Positions 22,406 through 53,941 of a stretch of 64,000 nucleotides of DNA are shown piece after piece (position 1 is the stretch's first letter; each line of letters starts with the position of its first letter). Origin of the DNA: Nitrospirales bacterium. GTDB taxonomy: Bacteria; Nitrospirota; Nitrospiria; Nitrospirales; UBA8639. The DNA is taken from positions 1,056,001 through 1,120,000 of the forward strand of contig OY820905.2 of the NCBI GenBank assembly GCA_963555755.3, written 5' to 3'. The notes beneath the pieces were generated by a model that was not told where the DNA came from, made no database searches, and worked only from the letters and a program-made list of their open reading frames with translations. Both the position numbers and the translations under genes were made by a program.

Positions 22406-23188
22406 ATGGCTTTGATATTTTCTCAACGCATTATCCTAGATACGGCAGTTGGATCACAAAAGTCCGCGCAAGCTCTTGGCGCACATGGCACAATAAAACA
22501 ATGTCTCATCACCTCCGAGGTGACCACGACTTTTTGTATCGCACCATGCACACCAATATCTTACACGTCTTTTTTGCGCCCGACTGTCGTTTCTAGGATT
22601 ATTGCTGTTTTCTTTGTCTGTCTGTTCTGGATACCCAGCCAGGAGGCGTTCGCTGGAAAAGCCTCTGAAACCATCATGCACCTTCAGGAGACGATAGTGA
22701 AAATCATGAAGGAAGGGGACACGTTGGGATACCAGGGTCGCTATAGGGTTATCACCCCTGTCATTGAGCTTACCCATGACCTTTCTGTGATTGCACGCAT
22801 TGCGATCGGAAGACATTGGAAAAAACTGACAAAGGAGCAACAGGCAGGATTTACCAGCACCTTTCAAGAACTGAGCCACTCGACGTATGCTGATCGATTC
22901 AATAGTTACTCCGGGGAACAGTTTTCACTGATTTCCGAAAAATCTCTCAAGCGAAATCGCAAGCTCGTTCAAACACGATTTGTGAAAGCCGATGGTGAGG
23001 AAATACGATTTAACTACATCCTCCACCAAGTTCAGGATCAATGGAAGATAATAAATATTATGGTGAATGGCGTGAGTGATTTGGCCCTCAAACGAACCGA
23101 ATATGGGAGCATTTTGAAAAAGGATGGCTACACGACCCTCATTGAAAAATTACGTGCCCAAATCAAAGAAAGTGCGAATGGACTATAG
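22406..23188 (+). CDS. MlaC/Ttg2D (HpnM-like) periplasmic lipid-binding protein carrying an in-frame MITE
   Basis: IARIAIGRHWKKLT..QQ..F...F, WKIINIMVNGVSDLALKRTEYGSIL; adjacent to MlaA-like and HpnN-like genes. Confidence 0.85.
   Translation: MALIFSQRIILDTAVGSQKSAQALGAHGTIKQCLITSEVTTTFCIAPCTPISYTSFLRPTVVSRIIAVFFVCLFWIPSQEAFAGKASETIMHLQETIVKIMKEGDTLGYQGRYRVITPVIELTHDLSVIARIAIGRHWKKLTKEQQAGFTSTFQELSHSTYADRFNSYSGEQFSLISEKSLKRNRKLVQTRFVKADGEEIRFNYILHQVQDQWKIINIMVNGVSDLALKRTEYGSILKKDGYTTLIEKLRAQIKESANGL
22435..22597. mobile_element. 163-bp MITE family A inside the CDS
   Basis: TIR CCTAGA.ACGGCAGTTGG / CGACTGTCGTTTCTAGG; 5-bp TSD ATTAT at 22430-22434 and 22598-22602. Confidence 0.9.
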
Positions 23189-27459: not shown

Positions 27460-29362
27460 CAGGGCTATTTCATATTAGAGTGTAACTTCATAAATAATAA
27501 GGAATAATCGATTTAGGCTGGCTTTTTCTTTTCGTTTGAGGCATACTCTTTTTCATGCCAGACGAATCCCCAAGCGGACAGCCGGACATCGATCTGGGGC
27601 AAGTGGTGGTTCGCCCAATTGTCCGGGACGAGAAGGACACCTTCAAGACCCTGCTCGACAGACATCACTACCTCGGGTCTGCCCCGCTGATTGGCCCATC
27701 GATCCAATACCTCGCCTGTGTGCAGGATCGCTGGCTGGCCTTGCTGGTGTTTGCGGCGGCGGCCCTCAAATCGAAACCGCGCGACCACTGGATCGGCTGG
27801 CCCCCCTGTTTTCACTGGCAACGCCTCCATTTACTAGCCAACAACACCCGGTTTCTCATCCTGCCGGGCTGTTCGCAAAAGAACCTTGCCTCGAAAGTCC
27901 TGTCGCTCTGCACGAAACGGATCACGGCTGATTGGCAAATGTGCCACGGCTACCCCGTGCTCCTCTTAGAAACCTTCGTCGATCCTGCCCGCTTCACCGG
28001 GACCTGCTATCGAGCCGCCGGGTGGCAGGAGCTCGGGCTGACCCGAGGGTTTCGCAAGGCCAATACGCGGTATGTTCCGCATGACCGCCCCAAACGAATT
28101 CTGGTCAGAAGTCTGCATCCCCAAGCCCGAGCGATCCTGGCCCGCCCGATGTTGGAGCCGCTCTATCAGAAAGGAGAGGTACCTCAGATGCGATTGAATG
28201 CCAAGCAGACGAACTCCCTGTTTACCTATGTGGTGCAATTGACCGATCCACGCAATTTGCAAGGGCAACGACACACCCGACGCGCCCTCACCGCGATCAT
28301 GTTCTGTGCCACCTTGTGCGGCGCCGATGGCTATGAAGCGATCTCGGACTGGGCCCAGCAGTTATCTCAGACGATGCGCAAGCGGCTGGGATGCACCAAA
28401 CGAGGGGGCCGCTACCTCGTCCCGAGCCGCAGCACACTCTACCGATTTATCTCGGCCGTCGACCCCTGGGAAGTCGACACCCTGCTCGGCCGGTGGCTGG
28501 ACACCTTTGGGGGGGAGGATCAGGGCATCGCCATTGATGGCAAGACCATGCGGGGGACTTCGAAGGTCCCGAGCGAACAGACCCATGTCCTCAGCGCCGT
28601 CACCCATGACGAGGGGCGCCACCTCACCCCAAAAAAGTCGACACCAAGACCAATGAGATCCCCTGCGTGCGTCCCTTATTAGATGAGCTGGAGATCGAAG
28701 GGAAGGTCATCACGGCGGATGCGCTCCTCACCCAGAAAGAGATCGCAAATTACCTTGTGCAAGAACGCGGGGCCGACTTCGTCTTCACCGTCAAGGGGAA
28801 CCAGCCGACCTTGAAGCACGACATTGAGGCCTTGGATTTGACCGCACAACGATGTGATGATGAGACGACCGATAAGGGCCATGGGCGAATCACGATCCGC
28901 AGGATCTGGTGCGACGACTCCCTGAATGCCTCTGTCACCTTTCCCCATGTGCAGCAAGTCTTCTGCATTGAGAGGGAAGTCGCGCATCTCAAGAAGGGCA
29001 TCACGACGGTAGATACCGTATGCGGAGTCACAAGTCAGTCACCAGCGAAGGCCTCGCCGAAGAAAATCCTCTCGCAAAACCGGAAGCATTGGAGTGTGGA
29101 GAATAAGCAGCATTATGTGTTGGATGTCACCTTTGATGAAGACCGGAGTCAGATCCGACGGCTCAATGGCCCGATGGTCATGACCTGTCTGCGACGCTAT
29201 GCCATCAGTCTCTTACGCGTGAAAGGCCAAACCAATATCGCGCAGGCGTTTCGATGGCTCTGGGCCAAGCCCCATGTAGCCATCCGCATGGCTCTGCCCT
29301 GAAAAAGTGATCAAAAAAAACTCATGGAATCCCTTGCTTATAAAAAGAATGAAATGGCCCTG
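27460..29362 (+). mobile_element. ISAs1-family element with DUF4338 domain, copy 1
   Basis: TIR CAGGGCTATTTCAT / ATGAAATGGCCCTG; homologous to 32390-34293. Confidence 0.9.
27555..29302 (+). CDS. DUF4338-ISAs1 transposase (ORFs 27555-28682 and 28667-29302 joined by a -1 frameshift)
   Basis: HHYLG, NNTRFLILP, LLETFVDP.RFTGTCYRAAGW; AIDGKTMRG; KTNEIP, ITADALLTQ, VKGNQP, HWSVEN..HYVLDVTFDED; A_AAA_AAG at 28631-28637. Confidence 0.88.
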
Positions 29363-32389: not shown

Positions 32390-34293
32390 CAGGGCTATTT
32401 CATATTAAAGTGTAACTTTATAGATAATAAGGAATAATCGATTTAGGCTGGCTTTTTCTTTTCGTTTACGGCATACTCTTTTGCATGCCAGACGAATCGC
32501 CAAGCGGACAGCCGGACATTGATCTGAGGCAAGTCGTGGTTCGCCCAATTGTCCGAGACGAAAAGGACGCCTTCAAGACCCTTCTCGACAGACACCACTA
32601 CCTCGGTCATGCCCCGCTGATTGGCCAATCGATACAATATCTCGCCTGTGTGCAGGATCGCTGGCTGGCCTTGCTGGTGTTTGCGGCGGCGGCCCTCAAA
32701 TCGAGACCGCGAGACCACTGGATCGGCTGGCCCCCCTGTTTTCAATGGCAACGACTCCATTTACTGGCCAACAACACCCGGTTTCTCATGCTGCCGGGCT
32801 GTTCGCAAAAGAACCTCGCCTCGAAAGTCCTGTCGCTCTGCGCGAAACGGATCTCGGCCGATTGGCAACTGTACCACGGCTACCCCTTGCTCCTCTTAGA
32901 GACCTTCGTCGATCCTGCCCGCTTCACCGGGACCTGCTATCGGGCCGCCGGGTGGCACGAGCTCGGTCTGACACGAGGGTTTCGCAAGTCGAACACGTGT
33001 TATGTTCAGCATGAGAGACCGAAGCGCATCCTAGTCGTGCGGCTGCATCCCCAAGCCCGAGAGATCCTTGCACGCCCGATGCTTGATCAGCCCTATCAGA
33101 AAGGAGAAGCGCCTCAGATGAGATTGAATACAAAACAGACGGACTCCCTCTTTACGTATGTGGTGCAGCTGACCGATCCCCGCCATTTGCAAGGGCAACG
33201 GCACACCCGACGCGCCCTCACGGCGATCATGTTCTGTGCCACCTTGTGCGGCGCGCGCGGCTATGAAGCGATCTCGGACTGGGCCCAGCAGTTATCGCAG
33301 CCGATGCGCAAGCGGCTAGGCTGTACTCAGCGAGGGGGGCGCTACCTCGTCCCGAGCCGCAGCACTCTTTACCGCTTTATCACGGCCGTCGACCCCTGTG
33401 AAGTCGATACCCTGCTCGGCCGGTGGCTGGACACCTTCGGCGGGGAGGATCAGGGCATTGCCATTGATGGGAAGACCATGCGGGGGACGTCGAAGGTCCC
33501 AAGCGAACAGACCCACGTCCTCAGCGCCGTCACCCATCAAGCCGGGCGCCACCTCACCCAAAAAAAGTTCACTCCAAGACCAATGAGATCCCCTGCGTGC
33601 GGCCCCTGTTAGATGCGCTCGAGATCGCAGGGAAGGTGATCACGGCGGATGCGCTCCTCACCCAGAAAGAGATTGCCGAGTACCTGGTGCACGAACGCGG
33701 CGCCGACTTCGTCTTCACCGTCAAGGGAAACCAGCCCACCTTGAAGCACGACATTGAGGCCTTAGCGTTGCGAGCACGCCGGTGCGATTATGCCACCACC
33801 GAGAAAGGCCATGGGCAGATCACGACCCGCAGGATCTGGTGCGATGACTCCCTGAATGCCTATGTCAACTTTCCTCATGTCCAGCAAGTCTTCTGCATTG
33901 AGAGGGAAGTGACGCATCTCAAGCAGGGCCTCACGACCGTCGAAGCGGTCTGCGGTGTCACGAGTCAGTCCAAAGACAAGGCGGGGCCGAAGACCATCCT
34001 CTCGCAAAACCGAAAGCATTGGAGTGTGGAGAATAAGCAGCATTATGTGTTGGACGTCACCTTTGATGAAGACAGGAGTCAGATACGAAGTCTCAATGGC
34101 CCAATGGTCATGACCTGTCTGAGACGCTATGCCATCAGTCTCTTACGCCTGAAAGGCTACACCAATATCGCGCAGGCGTGTAGACTGCTCTGGGGCAAGC
34201 CCCATTTAGCCATCCGCATGGCCCTGCCCTGAAAAAGAGGGCACAAAAAACCTCATGGAATCCCTTGCTTATAAAAAGAATGAAATGGCCCTG
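32390..34293 (+). mobile_element. ISAs1-family element with DUF4338 domain, copy 2
   Basis: Same TIRs as copy 1; many scattered substitutions relative to copy 1. Confidence 0.9.
32485..34232 (+). CDS. DUF4338-ISAs1 transposase (ORFs 32485-33612 and 33597-34232 joined by a -1 frameshift)
   Basis: Same motifs as copy 1; A_AAA_AAG at 33561-33567. Confidence 0.88.
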
Positions 34294-36065: not shown

Positions 36066-36206
36066 TCCTCTAATTGGACAGCAGTGAAGGCATTCCAATG
36101 GTCAGAAGAACAAACGGTTTCTTAATGAGGAACGCGAAACGAGGCTGGAGGGGGATATACCTGAGGAATGAGGGATTTGCGTTGGCCGTCAGTCAACAGA
36201 AATAAT

Positions 36207-36370
36207 CCTAGAAACGGCAGTTGGGCGCAAAAAAGCCGTGTAAGCTATTGGTGTGCATGGTGAAATAAAAAAAGTCGTAGTCACCTTCGTGGTGATGAGA
36301 CATTTTTTTATTTTGCCAGGTGCGCCAATAATCTTACACGTCTTTTTTGCGCCCAACTGCTGTTTCTAGG
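36207..36370. mobile_element. MITE family A variant truncating an IS1380 remnant
   Basis: CCTAGAAACGGCAGTTGG / CCAACTGCTGTTTCTAGG; flanks ATAAT and TTCAA do not match. Confidence 0.8.
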
Positions 36371-37188
36371 TTCAACTGGTGTGAGGAGCATGCGGTGACG
36401 TTTGCGATTGGGGGCGTGCAGGATACAGCCGTGCAGGCCGCCATTGCGGCGAGCCCTGACACTCAGGGGCAACCCTATCGGGATGGGCACCTCGCTGAAA
36501 CCGTGCATGGTATGGCCAAGACCACGCACGCCTTTCGGCTCATCGTGCTGCGCCGACCCGTGCAACAGGATCTGTTTGCCCCCGAGGCCCCCAGCCTGCG
36601 CTACACGCTGATTGCGACGAACCGAGACGGAACCCTCGAGGAGATTGTGCGGTGGTACACCCAGCGGGGCGAGACCAGCGAGAATCGCATCAACGAACTG
36701 AAGATTGGCTTTGGCAGGGAACGACTGCCGTGTGGGCCCTTTGCGGCCCATGCCGTCTTCTTTCGCATTGGCGTGTTAGCCTACAACCTGTTTGTGGTGG
36801 TCAAGTTGTTGGCGGTGCCCCATGCCTGGAGCCGGTGCCCAGTGCGTACGGGGCGGTGGCGGCTCTATCAGGTGGCGGGCAAAGTGCGCCGGCATGCCGG
36901 CGCAGTCATTCGCAAAGTGCCGCATTGGTTATGGGGCTTGTGTGAAGAGATTCGCACGCGCTGTGCGGAAGCCGCCCAGGCATAAGCCGGGGCAGGAAGC
37001 AGACGCGAGAGGCAGTATGAAAGGAGCAGTGTGCCCAGAAGGAGCCGGTTGAACCCATTGCGGCAAGGAACCCCTTGGATGCGGCCTCGGATCCAGCAAG
37101 AACATTGCTCATGCGACTTCTCTAGTGGATAACAAAGGTGGTTTCCGCCACAGAAGTCTTGTTAACAAAATCCATCGCGGATTTTGGG
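36371..37188 (+). pseudogene. IS1380 family transposase 3' remnant with probable right end
   Basis: YTQRGETSENRINELKIGFG.ERLPCG.F.A.AVFFRIGVLAYNL, RWRLYQVAGKV; stop at 36985; ATCGCGGATTTTGGG end at 37188. Confidence 0.8.
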
Positions 37189-37415
37189 TATCGCGTTCCT
37201 CTCGCTCTCCGGCCTCAGTTTTGGTACTCTCACTCATCGTGGCGTCTCTCCTTTGTGGTTGAAGGTGGATGTTGGCGAACAACCATTTCAACCCGAGACG
37301 CCGCGTTTTTTCAATCCACCTCAGACACGACTTTCAAGTATCGCTCCGCATGGCGACCATGGCGGAGGTGTCCAATGTCGTATTCATTTGCCATAACAAA
37401 AGAAAGGAATCACGC

Positions 37416-38669
37416 ATGACCACGACCATGACAAGGTTACCGATCTCTCCTTCGAACGATGTGTGGAAACGATACACGATCCTCATCGTAGATGATGAGT
37501 CCTTCGTCCTGGATGAGCTTTATAGGGTCTTGACACACGAAGGTTTTTCCGTCGCCAAAGCAAGAAGTGGTGAGGAGGGCTTACAGCTCTTGAGCGAGGT
37601 GTCGCCTCAGTTGGTCATTGCGGATCAAAAAATGCCTGCCGGCATGAGTGGGACAGAGTTTTTGGCACAGGTCAAAGCCCGCCACCCTGATATGATGACA
37701 ATGATTCTCTCGGCCTATTCTGAGCCGGACTATCTCCTGGATGCCGTGAATGAAGCGGGTGTCTATCAGTATGTCTTGAAACCCTGGGATGAAACGGATC
37801 TTGTCGCTCGTGTCTCCCAGGCCCTGCAGTTTTCTCATGCGCAAGTGGAGCGCCGCCGTTTAGCTGAGGCCAATGCACGATTGCTGAAAAATATGACGCA
37901 GCGGGAATATTTCTCTCTGATGGGAGAATTCAGCGCGGCCATGTATGACCGGTTCTTTCCTGTGCTCGAAGCCAGCCTGCACGCGGAAAGGCATAAACTC
38001 AACCAGTTTACCAAGCGTTCATTCCTGTCCGCCAGTGAGGAAGGCTTTTCCCATTTGGGCATCGTGATCAGTCGGTTTGGTCAGGTGGGCAACATGTATC
38101 AGCAGCCCTCTCACTTCCGACGACTTCCCATAGAGCCGCTGGTTCACGGTTGTGTGAAGGAGGCCCAAGATGCCGTGAAACCATTAGGCCTCTCTGTTGA
38201 GTGGAAGGAGGACTATGCCCCCAATCTCCCTCATTTACTCATTCAGCCGACCGTCTTGTCGTACGCAATCAAAGCTCTCCTTGAAAATGCAGTGATTTTT
38301 AATGTGAGGAAGACGATTGATTCTCCTCGGCTTGTGTCGGTCACCGTGTCTTTCATGGCTGAGCCCGAGCCCCTCGTGCGTATTCAGGTGCAGGACAACG
38401 GGCCAGGGGTGGATCCTTTTGAACAGGACAAAATCTTTTTTCCCCTCTATTCCACGTGTCTTCCGAAAACAGCTCCCAGGATACAGCCCTATTCGCTGAG
38501 TGAATACAATTTGGGGATCTACCACCATATGGGCTTAGGGCTCTTCATTGCACGATGGGGCCTGATCCAACACCATGGCAACGTGGAATTGACCAGCTCC
38601 AGTGAATCGGGATCGGTTTTCCAGGCGGAAATTCCGATCGACCCGTCTGATCTGGCCGTCAAAATGTAG
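37416..38669 (+). CDS. Receiver domain + HATPase_c protein lacking the H-box His
   Basis: ILIVDDE, IADQKMP, KPW; LLENAV, VQDNGPG, GLGLFI; H-box region reads GEFSAAMYDRFFPVL; AAGGA before ATG 37416. Confidence 0.8.
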   Translation: MTTTMTRLPISPSNDVWKRYTILIVDDESFVLDELYRVLTHEGFSVAKARSGEEGLQLLSEVSPQLVIADQKMPAGMSGTEFLAQVKARHPDMMTMILSAYSEPDYLLDAVNEAGVYQYVLKPWDETDLVARVSQALQFSHAQVERRRLAEANARLLKNMTQREYFSLMGEFSAAMYDRFFPVLEASLHAERHKLNQFTKRSFLSASEEGFSHLGIVISRFGQVGNMYQQPSHFRRLPIEPLVHGCVKEAQDAVKPLGLSVEWKEDYAPNLPHLLIQPTVLSYAIKALLENAVIFNVRKTIDSPRLVSVTVSFMAEPEPLVRIQVQDNGPGVDPFEQDKIFFPLYSTCLPKTAPRIQPYSLSEYNLGIYHHMGLGLFIARWGLIQHHGNVELTSSSESGSVFQAEIPIDPSDLAVKM

Positions 38670-38972: not shown

Positions 38973-39725
38973 CTATAGCAAGGGGATAAATTTTTCTAAG
39001 GCGATTCTCAGCTTCTCAAGCTTTAATGGTTTCGTGATGAGATCATTCATGCCCGCTTGCAAACAGGTTCCTCGTTCATCTTCCGCAATACTAGCGGTTA
39101 AGGCGATAATGGGAATTTTCCCGGCGCCGGCTTCCATCTGTCGAATAATTGATGCCGCTTGATAACCATCGAGTTCCGGCAGACGGCAATCCATGAAAAT
39201 GAGGTCATAGGACGTCGCTTGCCATCGATCGATGGCCGCTTGCCCATTGTCCGCAATATCCACGTGGCAGCCTAATAGTTCCAGCATGTCCACGGCCACT
39301 TGTTGATGGATCCGCTCGTTCTCAGCAAGGAGCACGCGAATCATCCGGTCTGGTTGCTGTGGTTGATGAAGGTTGGGCCAACCCTCCTTTGAAAGGGAGG
39401 GCGTCGGCTTTTTGAGGGCGACAGACTGTGAGTGATCCGTCAGTTGTGCTAAAAAGGTATTGATAATCGCCTGCATCTTATCGAGGTATTCCTCCATCAT
39501 GTTGGGCATTTCAGTGAACAGCTGTTGGGCGCGCGGTGGGATCTCTTGTACGGCATGGCCTTGTTTTATAGCCTGTTGATAACCTTCCAGTACCATGGGT
39601 AAATACTGCTTGAGGTTCCTCGCGCAGATGTTCATATAGAGTAAGGGAGAACAGATATCATGCACGAAGGTCGCCCGTATTTCCTTAATGGTTTTGTCGG
39701 ACATCTTGTCTTCCATCGCATCCAT
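38973..39725 (-). CDS. HisKA/DHp-like domain + receiver domain protein (no ATPase domain)
   Basis: ATFVHDICSPLL H-box; YDLIFMDCRLPELDGY, IIALTA, CLQAGMNDLITKP. Confidence 0.82.
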   Translation of the reverse strand: MDAMEDKMSDKTIKEIRATFVHDICSPLLYMNICARNLKQYLPMVLEGYQQAIKQGHAVQEIPPRAQQLFTEMPNMMEEYLDKMQAIINTFLAQLTDHSQSVALKKPTPSLSKEGWPNLHQPQQPDRMIRVLLAENERIHQQVAVDMLELLGCHVDIADNGQAAIDRWQATSYDLIFMDCRLPELDGYQAASIIRQMEAGAGKIPIIALTASIAEDERGTCLQAGMNDLITKPLKLEKLRIALEKFIPLL

Positions 39726-40997: not shown

Positions 40998-43900
40998 ATG
41001 AGTCACTATCACTTAGGCATTAATCTTAGCCATGATCGCGCCGCAGCGTTAGTATCCGAGGGAAAATTTTTGACAGCGATTCAGCAAGAACGGCTGGATC
41101 GTCACAAGTACAGCCTCGGGCTTCTCCAACAATCGGTCGATGATCCCAAGGCCGTTCAACTCCCGATGGAAGCGATCCTCTACTGCCTTGAACATCACAA
41201 CCTTGACCTAGCCGACGTGGACACCATTACCGCCAACATGCCGGGAATCGATTGGAGCTCTCATATCTTAAAAAGGTGTTTACCTCAAAAGGTTGCGCAT
41301 AAGATTCGATCGATTCCCAGCCACCATCTCGCACATGCCTATAGCGCCTATTGGCCTTCCGGATTTGATGAGGCTGTGATCGTCGTCGTCGATGGCAGCG
41401 GCTCGACCCATGCACACAACACGGAATCCTATTCATTGTATGAAGGGCGAAACGAGAAGATCATCCCATTGCATACGGAATATGTCCCTGCTCATCTGGC
41501 GGAACTCTCCACTCTGGGATTTTTGTATGAATATGTCACGCGCAAGGCAGGCTTTGTGACGAAGACGGGATCCAAGCTCGCCATTCCCGAAGCGGGAAAA
41601 TTAATGGGGTTAGCCCCCTATGGGAAACACCAATCACACTGGCAGGGCTGGATACATACTAAACCTAGAAACAGCAGTTGGATCACAAAAGTCCGCGCAA
41701 GTTCTTGACGCACCTGGCAAAATAAAAAAATGTCTCATCACCACCGAGGTGACCTCGACTTTTTTTATTTCACCATGTACGCCAATACCTTACACGTCTT
41801 TTTTGCGCCCAACTGCCGTTTCTAGGCTAAAGCCAACAGTTATAGCCTGGCCATTTCCGCCTATGACATTTTTCTGGAAATCGCCGCCCTCGAAAAACGC
41901 TATGACACTCAGGAGGGCAAGGCGTATCTTCGACCCTATCTTGTGGATCTTGCCTTTAAGGTACAGAAAGAATTGGAGGAGGCCCTCTTCCATATTGTTG
42001 GTCTGGCGGTCAGACAGACAGGCATTCGTAAGGTATGCCTGGCGGGCGGTGTGGCCTTGAACTCCGTGGCTAATTATAAGCTGCTGACACAATTGGGGTT
42101 GGAAGATATATTTATCTTCCCCGCAGCTGGGGACTCAGGGATAGCCGCCGGATGTGCATTGTGGGCCTATGCCACGGAAGGACAGGGCACACAACGACAC
42201 CCATTCAAAACCGCAAACCTCGGGCGTCCGTACTCATCCGACGAAATACGACAGGCGTTGGAAAAATTTTCACATGGCCTCGACATTCACGAATGTACCT
42301 CGGCACAAATCATCGAACACTCCGCACGAGCGATGGCGAAAGGACATATCATCGCCAGATTTGCGGGAGGTTCCGAATACGGACCGCGGGCGTTAGGGTA
42401 TCGCTCAATCCTGGCGGATCCGCATTTTTCCAAAATGAAAGATATTATCAATGCCCGGGTAAAATTCCGCGAAGCCTTCCGTCCGTTCGCCCCTGTCGTA
42501 CCCGAAGAAAAGGTAGGCGATATCTTCGAGCACACCCACCCGTCACCCTTTATGTTACTGATCTCACCAATCAAACCGGAATATCAGGCACACATCCCTG
42601 GCGTATCGCACCATGATGGCACGGGACGCTTACAGACCACGACCCGTGAGACACACCCCTTTCTCTATCAGCTCTGTTGGGCCATCACGACCATCCGGGG
42701 AGGGCTACCCGTTTTGCTGAATACGAGTTTTAACATGGCCGGCCAACCGATTGTTGAAACACCCGAAGAAGCCATTGAAATGTTTTTACAGACGGATATC
42801 GATTACCTCTGTTTGGAAAACTTGTGGATCACCAAACGTGACTGCCCGGTCAAGGCCTATGAAGATCATCTGGCAACCGTCAAAAAGAATCCTCATCCTC
42901 AAGGACTCGCGCCCGAACAACCGCCGGTGACGGACCTCATGAAAAAACTCGATCGCGCGTTGTTTTTTGGAGACATGGATTAATGCCCGTGGTCCTTGGA
43001 AGAGGTAACCGCACTTTCTTCACAAGGCGGTAAATACAAGGAGACCACCCGATTATTTCCGGAGAATCCATTCCACCGTCCCTTTAGTACCCATCTGTCT
43101 TCAGGTGTTGTCTTACTATTGGATCCCATGAATCAGTCTCATTTAATTGACCTGAGTTACAAAAAGAAACCAGCCAGGTATTCCTTTAGGCAAGTGCGAT
43201 TGCTGATGGCCTTGCTGGGCAATTCTTCTGATTGCCTGGACGCATTACGGATTGAAGCACAATACAGCACATCGGAATGGGAAAAAGAAATCCATTGGGG
43301 AACACAACAACTCCAGGCGTACGATTTGCCGACGATACCTTGTAAGCCGATTCCCCCGGATGATGCTCTTTCGGCACATAACACTCACACCCTGGCCCCC
43401 TTTGAAAACGAGGAATACTCTTTACGACACATCCTGCGACAGATTCGCGATGTGCTCCTGCGCAGCGAGTATACGGAAATCCATATTTGCACACTCCTTG
43501 GTCTCGATGCCCTCCAACAAATTGACCCCACCCATTTACACTATTACAATCGTTTTGTCCTGCCTGATACCGATCTCGCAGACTTGATTCGTGTTTTCTT
43601 GTTGCGTGTTGCCCTGCCTCGTCCAAAGCTGGAGACCCTGTTCGGCCAAGCCTGTTTCCAAACCCTCAGGCATCTTGGGGTACTCATCCCACGCGGGGAA
43701 GCCTTCGCGTCCCGTATCGATCTCTATGACGTGGATGGGTTTTTTATCGGGACGGATCACCGATATATGCTCCTGGATGAAGATCGAATCGCCGAAGATC
43801 CCGTCATGTATGTCGGGTTGGATAGCCTAGGCTTAGTGAATACGGCCCCACGTGATCCAGCCAATCACCTGTTGGATTTATGCACGGGATCCGGAGTACA

Positions 43901-44983
43901 AGCGATCGTCGCTAGTCGGTATGCCAAAGAGGTCATAGGTGTGGACGTCAACCCGAGAGCGATACGCTTTTCAAGATTTAATGCCCAATTAAACGGCATT
44001 GAGAATGTCACATTTCTGAAAGGCAATCTCTATGATGCCGTACATGGCAGGTCTTTCGATGGTATTTTAGCCAATCCTCCCTTTGTTCCTAGTCCTGTTT
44101 ATGATTTGGGATTTAGAGACGGCGGTCGGCAGGGAGAGGAAATTCTTGCCCAAATCATTTCGAATGCCTCACAACACTTACGTCCTCTTGGAAAATTACA
44201 TATTGTTTCCGATTTGGTGGATCTGAATAACTATGAGTCGAAATTGAGTCACTGGTGGAAGGGTGGTCCGGCACAAACACTGATTCTTCATACGGCGGAT
44301 CGGAACGAGGTATTGTTTTCCGTCCCGCACAGTCACGCGCCGTTTGGTCAAGACTTCAAGAGTTACAATCAAGAAATAGAACGCTGGATAAACAACTTTC
44401 GACGAGCGAGACTCACTGCCGTGAATTTCGGATATATCCTCATCCACCGCCTTCTCGACACCACAGCAGGGAGTTATAAGACCCGCGTGATAAGCAGTCC
44501 TCTGAAACCGATTCACGAGCAAGTGAAACAATACTTTGAGCAGCAAGCCTTATTACGTCGTCCCGATTGTAGTCAACTCTTTCTGAGTCTGAACCAGCAA
44601 ATGGTTTTTTGCACAAAATTCCAATACGGAATCACCTGTCACCAGGTCGAATTGTGTGCCCCGGATAATCCCTATTTTACAACGTATGTGTTAACGGACT
44701 CCTTACTTGAGTTGGTCAAAGAGATTGCACGTCATCAGCCTCGGCTTGGCCTTTTCCTGGCCGGCGATCACTGTGAATGTATCCTCGATCTCATCAATAA
44801 GGGTATTCTGTTGCTTGGACCTAGGCCCCACCCCCACATGATCCAGGAGGACTGGAACGGTCATGGCCAACATTCCCTGACCGCATGGGCCCCTCGGGGG
44901 ACCATATGCCTTCCATGCAGTCTATTCAAGAGTTAGCCTCCAAAACGACTCCTACTTGCTTATCCTCCTATCTCAAAGTATAA
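40998..44983 (+). pseudogene. Disrupted CmcH/NodU-type carbamoyltransferase fused to a class I SAM methyltransferase
   Basis: ORFs at 40998, 41943 and 42996 share one frame: HHLAHAYSA, VVDGSG, GKLMGLAPYG, GGVALN, PAAGDSG, EYGPRALG, KFREAFRPFAP, LNTSFN, then LDLCTGSG and ANPPF. Interrupted by a MITE (41664-41826) and TAA (42981-42983); possible 3' frameshift. Confidence 0.82.
41664..41826. mobile_element. 163-bp MITE family A inside the carbamoyltransferase gene
   Basis: 5-bp TSD CTAAA at 41659-41663 and 41827-41831; removing it restores IHTKANSYSLAISAYDIFLE. Confidence 0.92.
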
Positions 44984-45018
44984 GGCGGGTGAATGGCGTG
45001 TAAACGGAGAAAATCGAC

Positions 45019-47229
45019 ATGGACCCTCAAAAAACCGCCCTGATACTCATCGGGTATCAAAATGAATATTTCTCGGCTGAGGGAGTCTTACGTGAGGCCA
45101 TTGAGGCTTCATCCCAGGCCACACAAATTTTGGCGAATACTTGTTATCTGGTGGACGAACTCAGGGACACTCCCGTCTTGCTCATTACCACCCCGATCGT
45201 GTTTGCCCCTGACTACCGGGAATTGGTTGATCCCATCGGAATTTTAAAATCCATCAAAGAGGCGGGCGCCTTTCAAGCCGGCACCATTGGTGCAGAGACC
45301 ATCCCGGAATTGAAAGCCTACGGGGAACGAATTGTGGAAATTTCTGGCAAGTTCGGGCTGAACGCATTTTCTAATACAAACCTTGCGTCCCTACTCCGGG
45401 CCCACGATATCACGGAAGTGGTGATTGCGGGGGTCGTCACCTCCATTTGTGTCGACTCAACGGCACGTTCTGCCGTCGAACTGGGTTTCAAAACCACCAT
45501 CCTCTCGGATTGCACCTCGGGTCGCAGTGTGTATGAACAAGATTTTTTCTGTGAGAATATATTTCCTCTTTATGCCAACGTGGTGGATCATAAGGCCTTA
45601 TTACACACGCTGAGCTTTTCCAGAACGAACTCTTCTCACCTCCCAAGCCGAGGGGACATTCAAGCCCAAATCAGTCACCGCCTGTTTGAAGAATTGGCGG
45701 CAACCGAACAACGGTATCGAACTTTGGTGGAAATACGAAACGTCGTTTTTAAATACGATCAACATGGCTGTTTGACCTTCGTCAATCCCGCTTGGGAGGA
45801 TTTGCTGGGGTACCCGATAGAGGATACGCTCGGCCGTCCTCTCACCGATTTTTTATGCGAAGAAGATCGGGAAAAGGGGCTGGCCCTCGTGACCATAGGT
45901 CCTCAAACACCAAAAAGTCGATCTGATAAGCTACGCTTTTGTCATAGTCGGGGTCATGCCCGCTGGTTTGATGTCTCTCTCAGCTTGAGTGATGATGGGG
46001 AAGGCGTTGGGTTACTTTACGATATTACCGAGCAACAGGCGGAAGAAGAACAATTACAGCATACCCTTCGCAGGACCAAGGCCATTGCCAAATCCACGTC
46101 TGATTTTCTCTCGACCATGAGTCACGAGATCCGAACCCCGATGAATGGGGTCCTCGGCATGACGGAGTTGTTATTAACCACCGAGCTTAATGAAAAACAA
46201 AAACAATATGTCGAGGCCATCAGTGTCAGCGGTGAATTTCTCCTCGCACTCCTGGACGATATTCTAGACCTCTCCAAACTGGAATCGGGCAAAATGTCCC
46301 TGAAGCGTCAACCGCTGAACATTCCTCATATGATGAAATCGTTGTACGAACTCTTCCTTCCTGAAACCACCGCGAAAGGACTTCGTCTAGACTTTGTGAT
46401 CAAGGATGATGTCCCTGTCGAGATACAGGGCGATATCACAAGACTTCGGCAAATCTTGATCAATCTGATCGGGAATGCGGTAAAATTTACCGATCGTGGG
46501 GAGGTTGAGATTTCCATCCACAAGACATCCCAAGCCATGCAAACGTTGACCTTACTTTTTTCCGTGAAAGACACGGGCATCGGGATCTCTCCAGAAAAGC
46601 AATTCACCTTATTCGAAGCGTTCACCCAAGTCGTTCCATCCACGGCACGGGAATACGGTGGAACAGGCTTGGGATTGAACATTTGTTCCAAGCTCGTCAC
46701 TCTCATGAATGGGAGGATATGGGTCGAGAGTCAGGCCGGCCAAGGAACCACGGTCTCCTTTACCATCAAGACCAAGGCACTTACTGAGAAGTCATCGGAT
46801 AAGATGGGTCAAGAGACATCCCCGCGTCTTGATCCACAGCTTGCGACACATTTTCCCGCGCGCATCCTCGTGGCGGAAGATGACCCTATTAATCAGCAGG
46901 TTATCATTGACATGCTGGCTGCAATGGGCTACCGGGCGGATATTGTCGAAACCGGCATCGACGTCGTGAAAAGATTGAACACTCACCAGTACGATGTCAT
47001 TTTCATGGATATCAAACTGCCGGAGATGGATGGGATCCAAACTACGCAACACATCTTTAAAATCATGCCGCCGGAAAGGCGTCCGTGGATTATTGCCCTC
47101 ACCGCCAATGTTCTTCAAGAAAATCGGGAACGATGCCTCGCGATCGGGATGTCCGACTTTATTACCAAACCCATTAACCCAAGGGCCTTACAATCCGCCT
47201 TAACCCGCCGGGGTACGCAAGTGACCTAG
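45019..47229 (+). CDS. Hybrid sensor kinase: isochorismatase/cysteine hydrolase fold - PAS - HisKA - HATPase - REC
   Basis: KTALILIGYQNEYF, GVVTSICVDSTARSA; FVNPAWEDLLGY; MSHEIRTPMNG; NLIGNAVKFT, DTGIG, GGTGLGL; FMDIKLPEMDG. Confidence 0.92.
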   Translation: MDPQKTALILIGYQNEYFSAEGVLREAIEASSQATQILANTCYLVDELRDTPVLLITTPIVFAPDYRELVDPIGILKSIKEAGAFQAGTIGAETIPELKAYGERIVEISGKFGLNAFSNTNLASLLRAHDITEVVIAGVVTSICVDSTARSAVELGFKTTILSDCTSGRSVYEQDFFCENIFPLYANVVDHKALLHTLSFSRTNSSHLPSRGDIQAQISHRLFEELAATEQRYRTLVEIRNVVFKYDQHGCLTFVNPAWEDLLGYPIEDTLGRPLTDFLCEEDREKGLALVTIGPQTPKSRSDKLRFCHSRGHARWFDVSLSLSDDGEGVGLLYDITEQQAEEEQLQHTLRRTKAIAKSTSDFLSTMSHEIRTPMNGVLGMTELLLTTELNEKQKQYVEAISVSGEFLLALLDDILDLSKLESGKMSLKRQPLNIPHMMKSLYELFLPETTAKGLRLDFVIKDDVPVEIQGDITRLRQILINLIGNAVKFTDRGEVEISIHKTSQAMQTLTLLFSVKDTGIGISPEKQFTLFEAFTQVVPSTAREYGGTGLGLNICSKLVTLMNGRIWVESQAGQGTTVSFTIKTKALTEKSSDKMGQETSPRLDPQLATHFPARILVAEDDPINQQVIIDMLAAMGYRADIVETGIDVVKRLNTHQYDVIFMDIKLPEMDGIQTTQHIFKIMPPERRPWIIALTANVLQENRERCLAIGMSDFITKPINPRALQSALTRRGTQVT

Positions 47230-47446
47230 GGATTGTCTTTTCTCTGTTAAGGTCAGGATTGGGGGGGATTTGGGGTCAATTACGGTGTTTTCTCTCAGAC
47301 ACTATTCTACACGAATCATCGGCTGTTTCCAGGGATTGTTCACCAGGCAGGCGGAGGATTCACCACCGCAAAATTGAGAAAACTCTCGTGCTCATAACAA
47401 TTTGAAGATCCAAACACCGGCTTCACTCGATCATTAAACCCAATTC

Positions 47447-48002: not shown

Positions 48003-48942
48003 CCTAGAAACAGCAGTTGGATCACAAAAGTCGGCGCAAGCTCTTAGGACCTACGAGAAAATAACTTGATCAATATCGCATCCAATCTTCGGGCCATCTT
48101 GGAACCTAGAAACAGCAGTTGGATCACAAAAGTCCGCGCAAGCTCTTGGCGCACCTGATAAAATACAAAAATGTCTCATCACCACCGAGGTGACCACGAC
48201 TTTTTGTATTTCACCATGCACCCCAATGTCTTACACGGCTTTTTTGCGCCCAACTGCTGTTTCTAGGTTGAACGGGCCTCAATCGAAAAACCCTCACCAT
48301 AGCTGTGCTATGCCTCGAGTGTTTCTCAATCGTTTCGTCCAAATCCGACCCAAATCTTGGCGCGATATTGATCAAGTTATTTTCTCGCAGGTCCTCAGGG
48401 CTCGCGCAAGAATAACTTCCCATTTTGGGGTGACGAGACACCTGTCTGGCAAGGCGCGAGGACTGCGCATACTCTTGGTATGTAAGGGACGAGCAACGCC
48501 GCCAGACAGGATGGATCGACGCTCAAAGATGGGAAGTTATTCTTGCGCGAGCCCTTAGGGTCCGTCACGAAATAACCGGGACAATTGGCCGAGACGATTT
48601 TGGAGCGAGCCAAGGAGCGAAGAGCGCGCATACCGGGAGTATGGAAGCGATGAGCGACGCCGGCGGAGCCCAAAAGCGTCCGGCCCTCCGGGGAGGCCCA
48701 TCTTTGGCCCGGGGCGGCGTTGCTCCTCGGTCACAGAGCCCCGCTCTGCTCCCTCGTCGCGCCTTGCCCCGATCACAAATCTGGGCCTCCCAATTGTCCC
48801 GGTTATTTCGTGACGGACCCTTAGCGCACCTGGCAAAATACAAAAATGTCTCATCACCAGAGAGGTGACCACGACTTTTTGTATTTCACGATGCGCACCA
48901 ATATCTTACGCGTCTTTTTTGCGCCCAACTGCCGTTTCTAGG
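48003..48942. mobile_element. Nested MITE cluster: outer A containing B (with inner A), C and D
   Basis: Outer A with TSD TTCAA; B 48047-48394 with inner A 48105-48267; C 48398-48554; D 48558-48820 (TIR GGGTCCGTCACGAAATAACCGGGACAATTGG); joined by TTA/TCA trinucleotides. Confidence 0.85.
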
Positions 48943-51817: not shown

Positions 51818-52139
51818 CCTAGAAACGACAGTTGGGCACAAAACAGCCGTGTAAGATATTGGTGTGCATGGTGAAATAAAAAAAGTCGTGGTCACCTTAG
51901 GGTTCGCGCAAGAATACCTTCCCCGGTTTGGGCGTCGATCCATCCCGCCTGGCGGCGTTGCTCGTCCTTTCCATACAGGAGTATGCGCAGTCCTCGCGCC
52001 TTGCCAGACAGGTGTCTCAGCACCCAAACCGGGGAAGGTATTCTTGCGCGAACCCTCCGTGGTGATGAGACATTTTTTTATTTGGCCAGGTGCGCCAAGA
52101 GCTTGCGCGGACTTTTGTGATCCAACTGCCGTTTCTAGG
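51818..52139. mobile_element. MITE family A with nested family C (51900-52055)
   Basis: TSD TTCAA; length 322 = 163 + 156 + 3. Confidence 0.85.
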
Positions 52140-52159
52140 TTCAAGGTGAGTGAGTTGGA

Positions 52160-53436: not shown

Positions 53437-53941
53437 GGGCTTGTTAAAAAATGACTGGGACAACATCGCGCCTAGATTTGGGTCGGATTTGGACGTAACG
53501 ATTGAGAATAAGCCGAGGCATAGCACCGCTATGTTGAGGCGTTTTCGATTAAGGCGCGTTCAACCTAGAAACAGCAGTTGGGCGCAAAAAAGACGTGTAA
53601 GATATTGGTGTGCATCGTGAAAGAGAAAAAGTCGTGGTCACCTTTGTGGTGATGAGACATTTTTCTCTTTTGCGAGGTGCGCCAAGAGCTTGCGCGGACT
53701 TTTGTGATCCAACTGCTGTTTCTAGGTTCAAAGGTGGCCCGAAGATGGGATGGGATTTTGTCCCAGTTATTTTTAACAGGCCCTTAGGGTTCGCGCAAGA
53801 ATAACTTCCCCTGTTTGGGTGCTGAGACACCTGTCTGGCAAGGCGCGAGGACTGCGCATACTCCTTATGGAAAGGACGAGCAACGCCGCCAGACGGGATG
53901 GATCGACGTCCAAACAGGGGAAGTTATTCTTACGCGAACCC
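53437..53941. mobile_element. MITE cluster: B (53437-53783) with nested A (53564-53726), then C (53787-53941)
   Basis: A has TSD TTCAA; B and C are joined by TTA. Confidence 0.85.

Follow-up and report, generated by a model that had tools for sequence, protein, structure and literature searches.

The DNA analyzed here, referred to below as the window, is a stretch of 64,000 nucleotides from the genome of a Nitrospirales bacterium (assembly GCA_963555755.3, contig OY820905.2, positions 1,056,001 to 1,120,000 of the forward strand). The gene with which this work is concerned encodes a hybrid histidine kinase, the N-terminal part of which is an isochorismatase-like domain that carries Gly at the position of the catalytic acid. 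The gene and its features are as follows (aa, amino acids).

45019..47229, + strand: cytoplasmic hybrid histidine kinase gene (736 aa), comprising a Gly-type isochorismatase-fold domain, putative docking helix, PAS, HisKA, HATPase_c and REC
45019..45618, + strand: isochorismatase-like domain of the Gly type, presumed to be the receptor (aa 1-200; PF00857; AlphaFold2; Foldseek)
45052..45054, + strand: codon GGG of Gly12, at the catalytic Asp/Glu position (alignment with 6XJM and 3KL2)
45226..45246, + strand: end of a presumed lid (aa 70-76, with Ile73); position 73 covaries with a helix Tyr/His, which is suggestive, not significant on independent pairs
45349..45351, + strand: Lys111, the triad lysine by its spacing to Phe117
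45448..45450, + strand: Cys144, at the nucleophile position (GVVTSIC144, fitting G-x-x-T-x-x-C)
45655..45732, + strand: putative docking/transducer helix (aa 213-238, DIQAQISHRLFEEL...), detected by a helix profile and equal to the N-terminus of a separate partner protein in other bacteria
45733..46038, + strand: PAS domain (Pfam)
46099..46773, + strand: histidine kinase core with His369 (46123) and the N, G1 and G2 boxes (Pfam, motifs)
46864..47202, + strand: receiver domain with Asp664 (47008; Pfam, motifs)

The open reading frame (ORF) of the kinase is preceded by GGAG at 45006-45009. Pfam searches located PF00857 at aa 6-192 (123.8 bits, cut-off 27), PAS at 239-340, HisKA at 361-424, HATPase_c at 471-585 and REC at 616-728, and PF00857 was the only match within aa 1-200. 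The characteristic motifs of a hybrid kinase (SHEIRTP, NLIGNAVKF, DTGIG, GGTGLGL, FMDI and ITKP) are intact, and the same full-length architecture was found, at 46-48% identity, in the homologs P0005, P0006, P0007, P0011, P0013 and P0139. As stated in a preliminary description of this sequence, no transmembrane segment was detected in the 736-aa protein; the highest mean hydropathy over 19 residues was 1.55, on the strand leading toward the Cys, and the customary threshold for such segments is about 1.6 or more. Contigs from two deep sequencing runs, either of which could be the source sample, were identical letter for letter to positions 41799-47300, and contigs from an RNA run covered 45036-46029, with DNA carry-over being possible. 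Scans for promoters and terminators gave nothing clear (14 vs 7.6 +/- 3.1 and 9 vs 8.6 expected, respectively). No close copy of the gene was found in 40 related genomes, where the best match (E 2.7e-18) was a Glu-type fragment, and the gene is therefore patchy in its distribution. The window genome also contains one cyanase and five Hpt matches, neither of which is specifically informative.

Glycine at the position of the catalytic acid

The AlphaFold2 model of aa 1-200 is confident, with a predicted local distance difference test (pLDDT) score of 93 and a predicted template modeling (pTM) score of 0.91. The nearest solved structure by Foldseek is 3KL2 (TM 0.95, root-mean-square deviation (rmsd) 1.2 A, 38% identity), and structure comparison also indicated a Rossmann-like alpha/beta/alpha fold (VIA Z 30.5, rmsd 1.4, 196 aligned), so that the structure prediction called for earlier yields an isochorismatase fold. 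The first strand reads LILIGYQNEYF, and the residue opposite Gly12 is Asp in the biuret hydrolase 6XJM and Glu in 3KL2. The original observation of Gly at the catalytic Asp position is thus confirmed, whereas the accompanying statement that the family normally has Asp at this site holds for 6XJM but not for the nearest subfamily, which has Glu. The Cys (Cys144) and the candidate Lys (Lys111) are retained, as had been proposed. The gap of six residues between Lys111 and the conserved Phe117 matches that between Lys142 and Phe148 in the biuret hydrolase BiuH; because one pairwise alignment with 6XJM pairs Lys111 with a second Lys instead, this assignment is based upon spacing. By its fold, the domain is a member of PF00857, but with the triad Asp replaced by Gly12 it lies outside the Asp-Lys-Cys enzymes of this family.

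The occurrence of Gly was examined in three sets of sequences, consisting of the best 120 of 1499 homolog matches (stand-alone set), 80 genome loci from a pattern search with 273 matching stretches among GTDB genomes, which is biased in that one of the three patterns contained the Gly, and 80 metagenome loci from a pattern search with 359 matching stretches, the patterns of which did not include the Gly site and one of which included the Lys (13 of these 80 duplicate genome loci). Gly, Lys and Cys were all present in each of these sequences (120/120, 80/80 and 80/80, respectively). Close homologs that keep Asp, which by the preliminary description would point to decay, were looked for among the best stand-alone homologs and none was found. 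In the close fused domains, that of the window included, Gly and Cys were both present in 16/16 rows, and the Lys site was occupied by Lys in 14 and by Arg in 2. Among the best 150 cluster representatives, the rows covering the site showed Gly in 69, Glu in 34 and Asp in 11 cases, and at 170 bits or more Gly was found in 46 of 47.

In a tree of 114 domains, from which the Gly column had been removed, 88 of the 90 Gly rows formed a single branch within a Glu/Asp background, and the other two were located just outside it. This branch had a value of 99 in the Shimodaira-Hasegawa-like approximate likelihood ratio test (SH-aLRT), the tree having been constructed by a quick method with this test and no bootstrap. 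All four Gly codons are in use across 159 loci (GGT 72, GGC 52, GGA 21, GGG 14), and Tyr17, Glu29, Ser142, Asp146, Arg169 and Tyr185 further distinguish the Gly clade from the Glu type. The distant Gly-type clusters are more relaxed (Lys in 38/62 and Arg in 15/62, Cys in 34/43) than those of the Glu type (Lys in 31/34, Cys in 32/33). A basal Gly-type protein outside the core clade (VFQGLQVEFC; loci L208 and L209, genomes G717 and G628) also precedes a hybrid histidine kinase, with no helix. Judged from these sequences, the Gly reflects selection on a reshaped pocket, and it is older than the kinase fusion, being fixed in a subfamily of mostly stand-alone proteins. The earlier suggestion of an enzyme fold repurposed as a cytoplasmic sensor stands with respect to a role in signaling input, which is well supported by gene context, but the Gly itself is not specific to the fused kinases.

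Helix-bearing partners, their outputs and fusions

In the genome loci, the gene next to that for the Gly-type domain nearly always encodes a signaling enzyme, with an overlap of stop and start in 16/77 by a crude start call, and the partner proteins start with one conserved helix (consensus ELxxQIQYRLxExL). A profile of this helix, which was trained on 64 of the genome loci, matched within 700 bp past the domain in 72 of the 79 scorable genome loci (71 separate, 1 fused; one of the 80 was too short to score), in 68 of the 73 scorable metagenome loci (seven were too short, and three of the five misses hold a diverged copy by eye) and in 7/7 further cyanobacterial loci. Its sole match in the window genome is the kinase linker at aa 214-234 (27.2 bits; the next scored 9.4), and the AlphaFold2 model of the kinase N-terminus has a helix at 211-238. 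No Pfam family matched this helix in the window or partner proteins, and it had been missed previously, as had the neighboring carbamoyltransferase-methyltransferase gene discussed below. Among 351 cyanobacterial genomes, the domain was present in 10, all of which were among the 12 with the helix; the two helix-only genomes contain one broken ORF and one intact protein (G582), and one of the 10 cyanobacterial domain genes has an internal stop. A helix match was observed in 0/3 of the Glu-type loci checked, and an Atlas search with the homolog P0090 returned isochorismatase clusters only. In at least nine phyla, the domain gene has a helix-bearing kinase, phosphatase or cyclase as its partner, and it is very probable that the domain provides some form of input to signaling enzymes.

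The outputs past the helix, which were surveyed in 39 + 28 proteins picked for diversity, comprise simple and hybrid histidine kinases, SpoIIE (PP2C) phosphatases, GGDEF/EAL proteins, a class III cyclase and TIR. Since several partners (L012 and L122, both with HisKA from residue 45, and L197, with the cyclase from residue 53) have no room for a PAS domain, the helix, not PAS, is the constant part. Fusions were located on at least four separate branches of the tree, namely those of the window's group, to which proteins of marine gammaproteobacteria also belong, of a group with Desulfobulbia members that includes one split relative, of P0141, and of the domain-helix-TIR proteins. In the fusions, the linker is formed by this same helix. 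This branching indicates that the domain and its helix-bearing partner have been fused several times.

A few other arrangements were also observed. The proteins P0003, P0014, P0136 and P0183 have a single or tandem Gly-type domain, look eukaryote-like, and have a Verrucomicrobia locus as their neighbor in the tree; P0003 and P0014 additionally carry the helix and, after it, TIR-like domains (with a Pfam match to TIR_2 in P0014). At L033, L077, L085 and L150, the Gly-type gene is followed by a Ser/Thr kinase and no helix, and their domains cluster in the tree, possibly representing a second docking mode. A second, ordinary Asp-type isochorismatase gene ends some cyanobacterial copies of the operon (L014, L015, L068), and in a Psychroserpens genome (L044:5667-6200) the Gly-type gene is immediately preceded by genes for an H-NOX protein and a PAS kinase.

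The carbamoyltransferase-methyltransferase gene and other genes of the window

Directly upstream of the kinase gene, which is whole, lies a pseudogene with the following features.

40998..44936, + strand: carbamoyltransferase (NodU/TobZ type)-N-methyltransferase fusion, pseudogene (ORFs 40998-41708, 41943-42983 and 42996-44936)
41660..41831, unstranded: repeat of about 170 bp, resembling a miniature inverted-repeat transposable element (MITE), in the carbamoyltransferase part (282 blastn matches in the genome; depth spike in all runs)
42981..42983, + strand: premature TAA, interrupting the carbamoyltransferase-methyltransferase gene (identical in two runs)

The pseudogene is 53% identical, in one frame, to an intact Nostoc protein of 1259 aa. 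The repeat is palindromic and 165-171 bp long, and other copies are present at 22435-22597, 36203-36372, 48103-48269, 51818-51897, 52054-52141 and 53564-53728. The nearest solved relatives of the carbamoyltransferase half are GdmN, NovN and TobZ, and that of the other half is gentamicin N-methyltransferase. The methyltransferase bears an NPPF motif and scores against HemK-type models, but its match to GenN, an enzyme acting on small molecules, is the closer one (E 4e-16, versus E 2.5e-6 for HemK). In a survey of neighbors, this fusion was the only recurring non-signaling gene. It is about 1260 aa long and was found, upstream, downstream or divergent, in the fetched flanks of 27 of the 80 genome loci, in four phyla, with many of the flanks being cut short. 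Of 350 sampled genomes, nine had the domain, seven the enzyme and two both (Fisher p 0.012, a value which is overstated since kin are not independent). When 50 of the 80 loci, one of them a positive control, were searched for a copy elsewhere in the genome, it was found in only 2 of the 49 that lacked the fusion nearby, and an obligatory role for this enzyme was rejected. The pairing of carbamoyltransferase and methyltransferase is not documented in the accessible part of PMC12790363. At L106, L107, L109 and L110 (genomes G375, G442, G468 and G502), the fusion occurs without a Gly-type gene and is followed by a conserved gene of 250-275 aa and two kinase/receiver-like genes, as judged by eye.

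Elsewhere in the window, a receiver with a kinase-like N-terminus (38973-39725, - strand) and a receiver with HATPase (37269-38669, + strand) flank the operon start and could be phosphorelay partners. Two ORF pairs of the same lengths (375 and 211 aa) are located at 32485-34232 and 27555-29302; in the second, a domain resembling Druantia DruA is linked to a transposase-associated domain, and a DDE transposase follows.

Proposed mechanism, alternatives and related systems

Based upon these sequence comparisons, the domain is probably a detachable, ligand-binding receptor with a reactive cysteine, which docks on the helix and passes its ligand-bound or covalent state to the output dimer. The window domain would be the fused copy of a two-part module, consisting of a Gly-type isochorismatase-fold protein and a short helix that heads a signaling enzyme, and a small molecule that binds to the domain, or likely reacts with Cys144, would switch this enzyme. 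Asp36 of BiuH is reported to be both general base and acid and to be irreplaceable, even by Glu (PMC5806882), and in TrtA the Lys lowers the pKa of the Cys while the Asp activates water for hydrolysis of the thioester (PMC7948467). Given these roles, a pocket with Lys and Cys and no Asp would bind or acylate and release slowly: the Lys could still activate the Cys, and slow release of the acyl-Cys would produce a long-lived bound or covalent state. Covalent capture by Cys144 is plausible. By spacing, the second acid of TrtA, Glu72 (PMC7948467), corresponds to Ile60 in the window domain. The ligand would close a mobile lid, as in the related enzyme TrtA, where its binding shifts one helix by 4.5 A, closing it (PMC7948467). 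The lid may touch the outer face of the docking helix, which would run into the coiled coil of the output dimer and set its activity; in the window protein, autophosphorylation of His369 and transfer to Asp664 would be set in this manner. Our best guess for the likeliest class of ligand, made because of the carbamoyltransferase neighbor and the ureide/carbamoyl chemistry of the family, is a small carbamoyl compound, e.g., a carbamate or a cyanate-like electrophile.

A contact between lid and helix is consistent with covariation of position 73 and the helix Tyr, which gave a score of 0.296 compared with a maximum of 0.185 in 200 shuffles of 84 non-redundant pairs. This was the sole inter-protein pair above all shuffles, and 15 of the 17 rows without Val/Ile73 also lacked the helix Tyr. 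Conserved helix residues are also located outside the presumed coiled-coil core. A single-chain AlphaFold2 model of aa 1-250 had a pTM of 0.80 (0.91 for aa 1-200) with pLDDT 87-94 in the helix, which is intermediate between what would roughly be expected of a free helix and of a docked one.

Several observations weigh against a helix-docking receptor. For the covariation, branches with good support provide four independent pairs (median p 0.25), and the Ile73/His220 pair of the window is among the 11/94 rows that break its rule. The window copy deviates from the Gly family in having Glu for Asp16 and Phe for Arg112, and because of these deviations it may be relaxed. The helix is missing in 7/79 genome loci, three of them leading into Ser/Thr kinases, and the genome with the intact helix protein, G582, has no Gly-type gene, either in the genome or in the 12 kb fetched. 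The carbamoyltransferase link is optional, and it is broken in the window genome. Additionally, the near-invariance of Lys and Cys in the core clade would suit an active enzyme equally well, and Glu29 and Glu173, the candidate substitute acids, are enriched in the Gly type.

These last points lead to the strongest alternative, that the domain is still a working hydrolase within the signaling module, with an acid from the lid (Glu29), Glu173 or the substrate in place of the Asp. In that case, turnover or the product would serve as the signal, in line with model 1 for RsbQ. We regard this as unlikely. Lys and Cys are invariant over 280 core-clade sequences, position 29 is acidic in 52/68 Gly-type clusters, compared with Lys in 22/34 of the Glu type, Glu173 is present in 33/37 Gly-type versus 10/28 Glu-type clusters, and RsbQ itself is a hydrolase that is reported to need its triad for signaling (PMC3183031; bioRxiv 2023.12.05.570042). 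However, any change of the Asp is reported to abolish BiuH activity (PMC5806882), Glu29 and Cys144 are gone in some distant Gly-type clusters, and the PAS-free partners offer no product pocket.

A more far-reaching extension of the receptor proposal, which we consider doubtful and slightly less likely still, is that the neighboring genes form a synthase-receptor set, in which the carbamoyltransferase-N-methyltransferase would make an (N-methyl)carbamoyl signal and a long-lived carbamoyl adduct of Cys144 would flip kinases, phosphatases and cyclases via the helix. If so, genomes with the receptor but no synthase, including the window genome with its broken copy, would be listeners, with receptor-only "listener" genomes as the comparison, and the set would represent an undescribed form of covalent chemical signaling over cyanobacteria, symbionts and other phyla, with a TIR-linked copy apparently acquired by eukaryotes.

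Two further possibilities concern the Cys and the helix, respectively. An exposed, Lys-activated Cys144 could act as a redox or sulfur sensor (by oxidation, persulfide or nitrosothiol) with no organic ligand, in line with the three conserved cysteines (144, 165 and 178), the presence among the carriers, going by organism names, of sulfur-oxidizing symbionts and mat cyanobacteria, and the H-NOX gene ahead of one Gly-type locus. Redox sensing, which had been suggested originally, is nonetheless weakened and now seems improbable: Cys165 is common to Glu-type relatives (25/32), the family-specific Cys178 is replaced in 19/80 genome loci, the polar pocket residues gained (Tyr17, Ser142, Arg169 and Tyr185) resemble ligand recognition, and no redox enzyme recurs among the neighbors. 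Alternatively, and with marginally lower probability, the helix could be a substrate, one of its conserved Gln being modified by the domain (deamidation or a stable thioester) somewhat in the manner of CheD, which acts on chemoreceptor glutamines, and the carbamoyltransferase-methyltransferase tuning the same site. Both Gln residues are indeed largely kept (in 80/84 and 69/84 non-redundant pairs), the pocket would be wider without the side chain of the Asp, and the methyltransferase has the NPPF motif and HemK-type scores noted above. Against this, its closer relative is GenN, most carriers have no methyltransferase, and coiled-coil or docking contacts also typically have Gln at positions of this kind.

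It is highly improbable that the domain is an enzyme of ordinary metabolism that is simply co-transcribed with the neighboring kinase and under its control; although most copies are stand-alone proteins of 200 aa annotated as cysteine hydrolases, a dedicated helix, nearly absent elsewhere, accompanies the domain across unrelated outputs, fusions are repeated, and no metabolic or transport neighbor recurs bar the one optional gene. Recent decay or a sequencing error, for which the GGG codon being one base off GAG (Glu) and the upstream pseudogene could be cited, is refuted by the fixation of Gly in all close relatives via all four Gly codons and by the identical letters in independent contigs.

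The receptor proposal can be compared with several known systems. Within PF00857, BiuH, TrtA and RutB share the fold (Z 24-26, rmsd about 2 A over about 195 residues), the Cys and the Lys, and as in BiuH a dimer is likely, with a residue of the neighboring subunit in the pocket, Tyr185 being at the spacing of BiuH Gln215 and thus possibly its counterpart; in contrast to these enzymes, the Gly type is without the catalytic Asp and is found in signaling and not catabolic gene clusters. The Glu-type 3KL2, a "putative isochorismatase" of Streptomyces avermitilis from structural genomics, represents the sister background of the Gly clade, but it has Glu at the site and the Glu type has Phe, His, Asn and Thr where the Gly type has Tyr17, Ser57, Ser142 and Arg169. 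No published function for 3KL2 was found in the accessible parts of the literature, and in what is accessible of PMC7694671 it served merely as a template. Like the module described here, the plant hydrolase-fold receptors GID1, D14 and KAI2 employ an enzyme pocket as a receptor, and GID1 has lost a triad residue too; they differ in having another fold, a eukaryotic degradation pathway and known hormones.

No description of an isochorismatase-fold sensor, or of this gene set, was found in open-access full text, subscription journals being outside the scope of this search. The module is real, conserved and apparently undescribed, and it probably represents a plug-in chemical sensor. The inputs of cytoplasmic kinases are mostly unknown, and a probable sensor family together with its putative 20-residue docking tag is now defined. 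Annotation pipelines label the Gly-type proteins "cysteine hydrolase", thereby overlooking the sensor, and the carriers include named, culturable cyanobacteria. In the split pairs, binding, ligand capture and output are directly testable, and the helix could serve as a portable part for engineered sensors.

The closest parallel is provided by RsbQ and RsbP-PAS of Bacillus subtilis, in which a stand-alone hydrolase-fold protein is likewise encoded beside a cytoplasmic signaling enzyme, and where phosphatase, histidine kinase and diguanylate cyclase outputs all make use of the pair through a coiled-coil relay (PMC3183031). RsbQ is also reported to be covalently modified by butenolides (bioRxiv 10.1101/2023.12.05.570042). 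However, RsbQ belongs to the alpha/beta hydrolases, retains its full triad and binds PAS, whereas the Gly module has an isochorismatase-like fold, lacks the triad acid and has a helix of about 20 residues as its constant partner element, PAS being dispensable, and natural fusions as well as class III cyclase and TIR outputs occur. The Gly module thus appears to work like RsbQ-RsbP without being a member of that system, since it has another fold, no triad acid and a helix instead of PAS. If this proposal is correct, a second hydrolase fold would have reached the sensing mode of RsbQ and KAI2 independently, by losing its catalytic acid.

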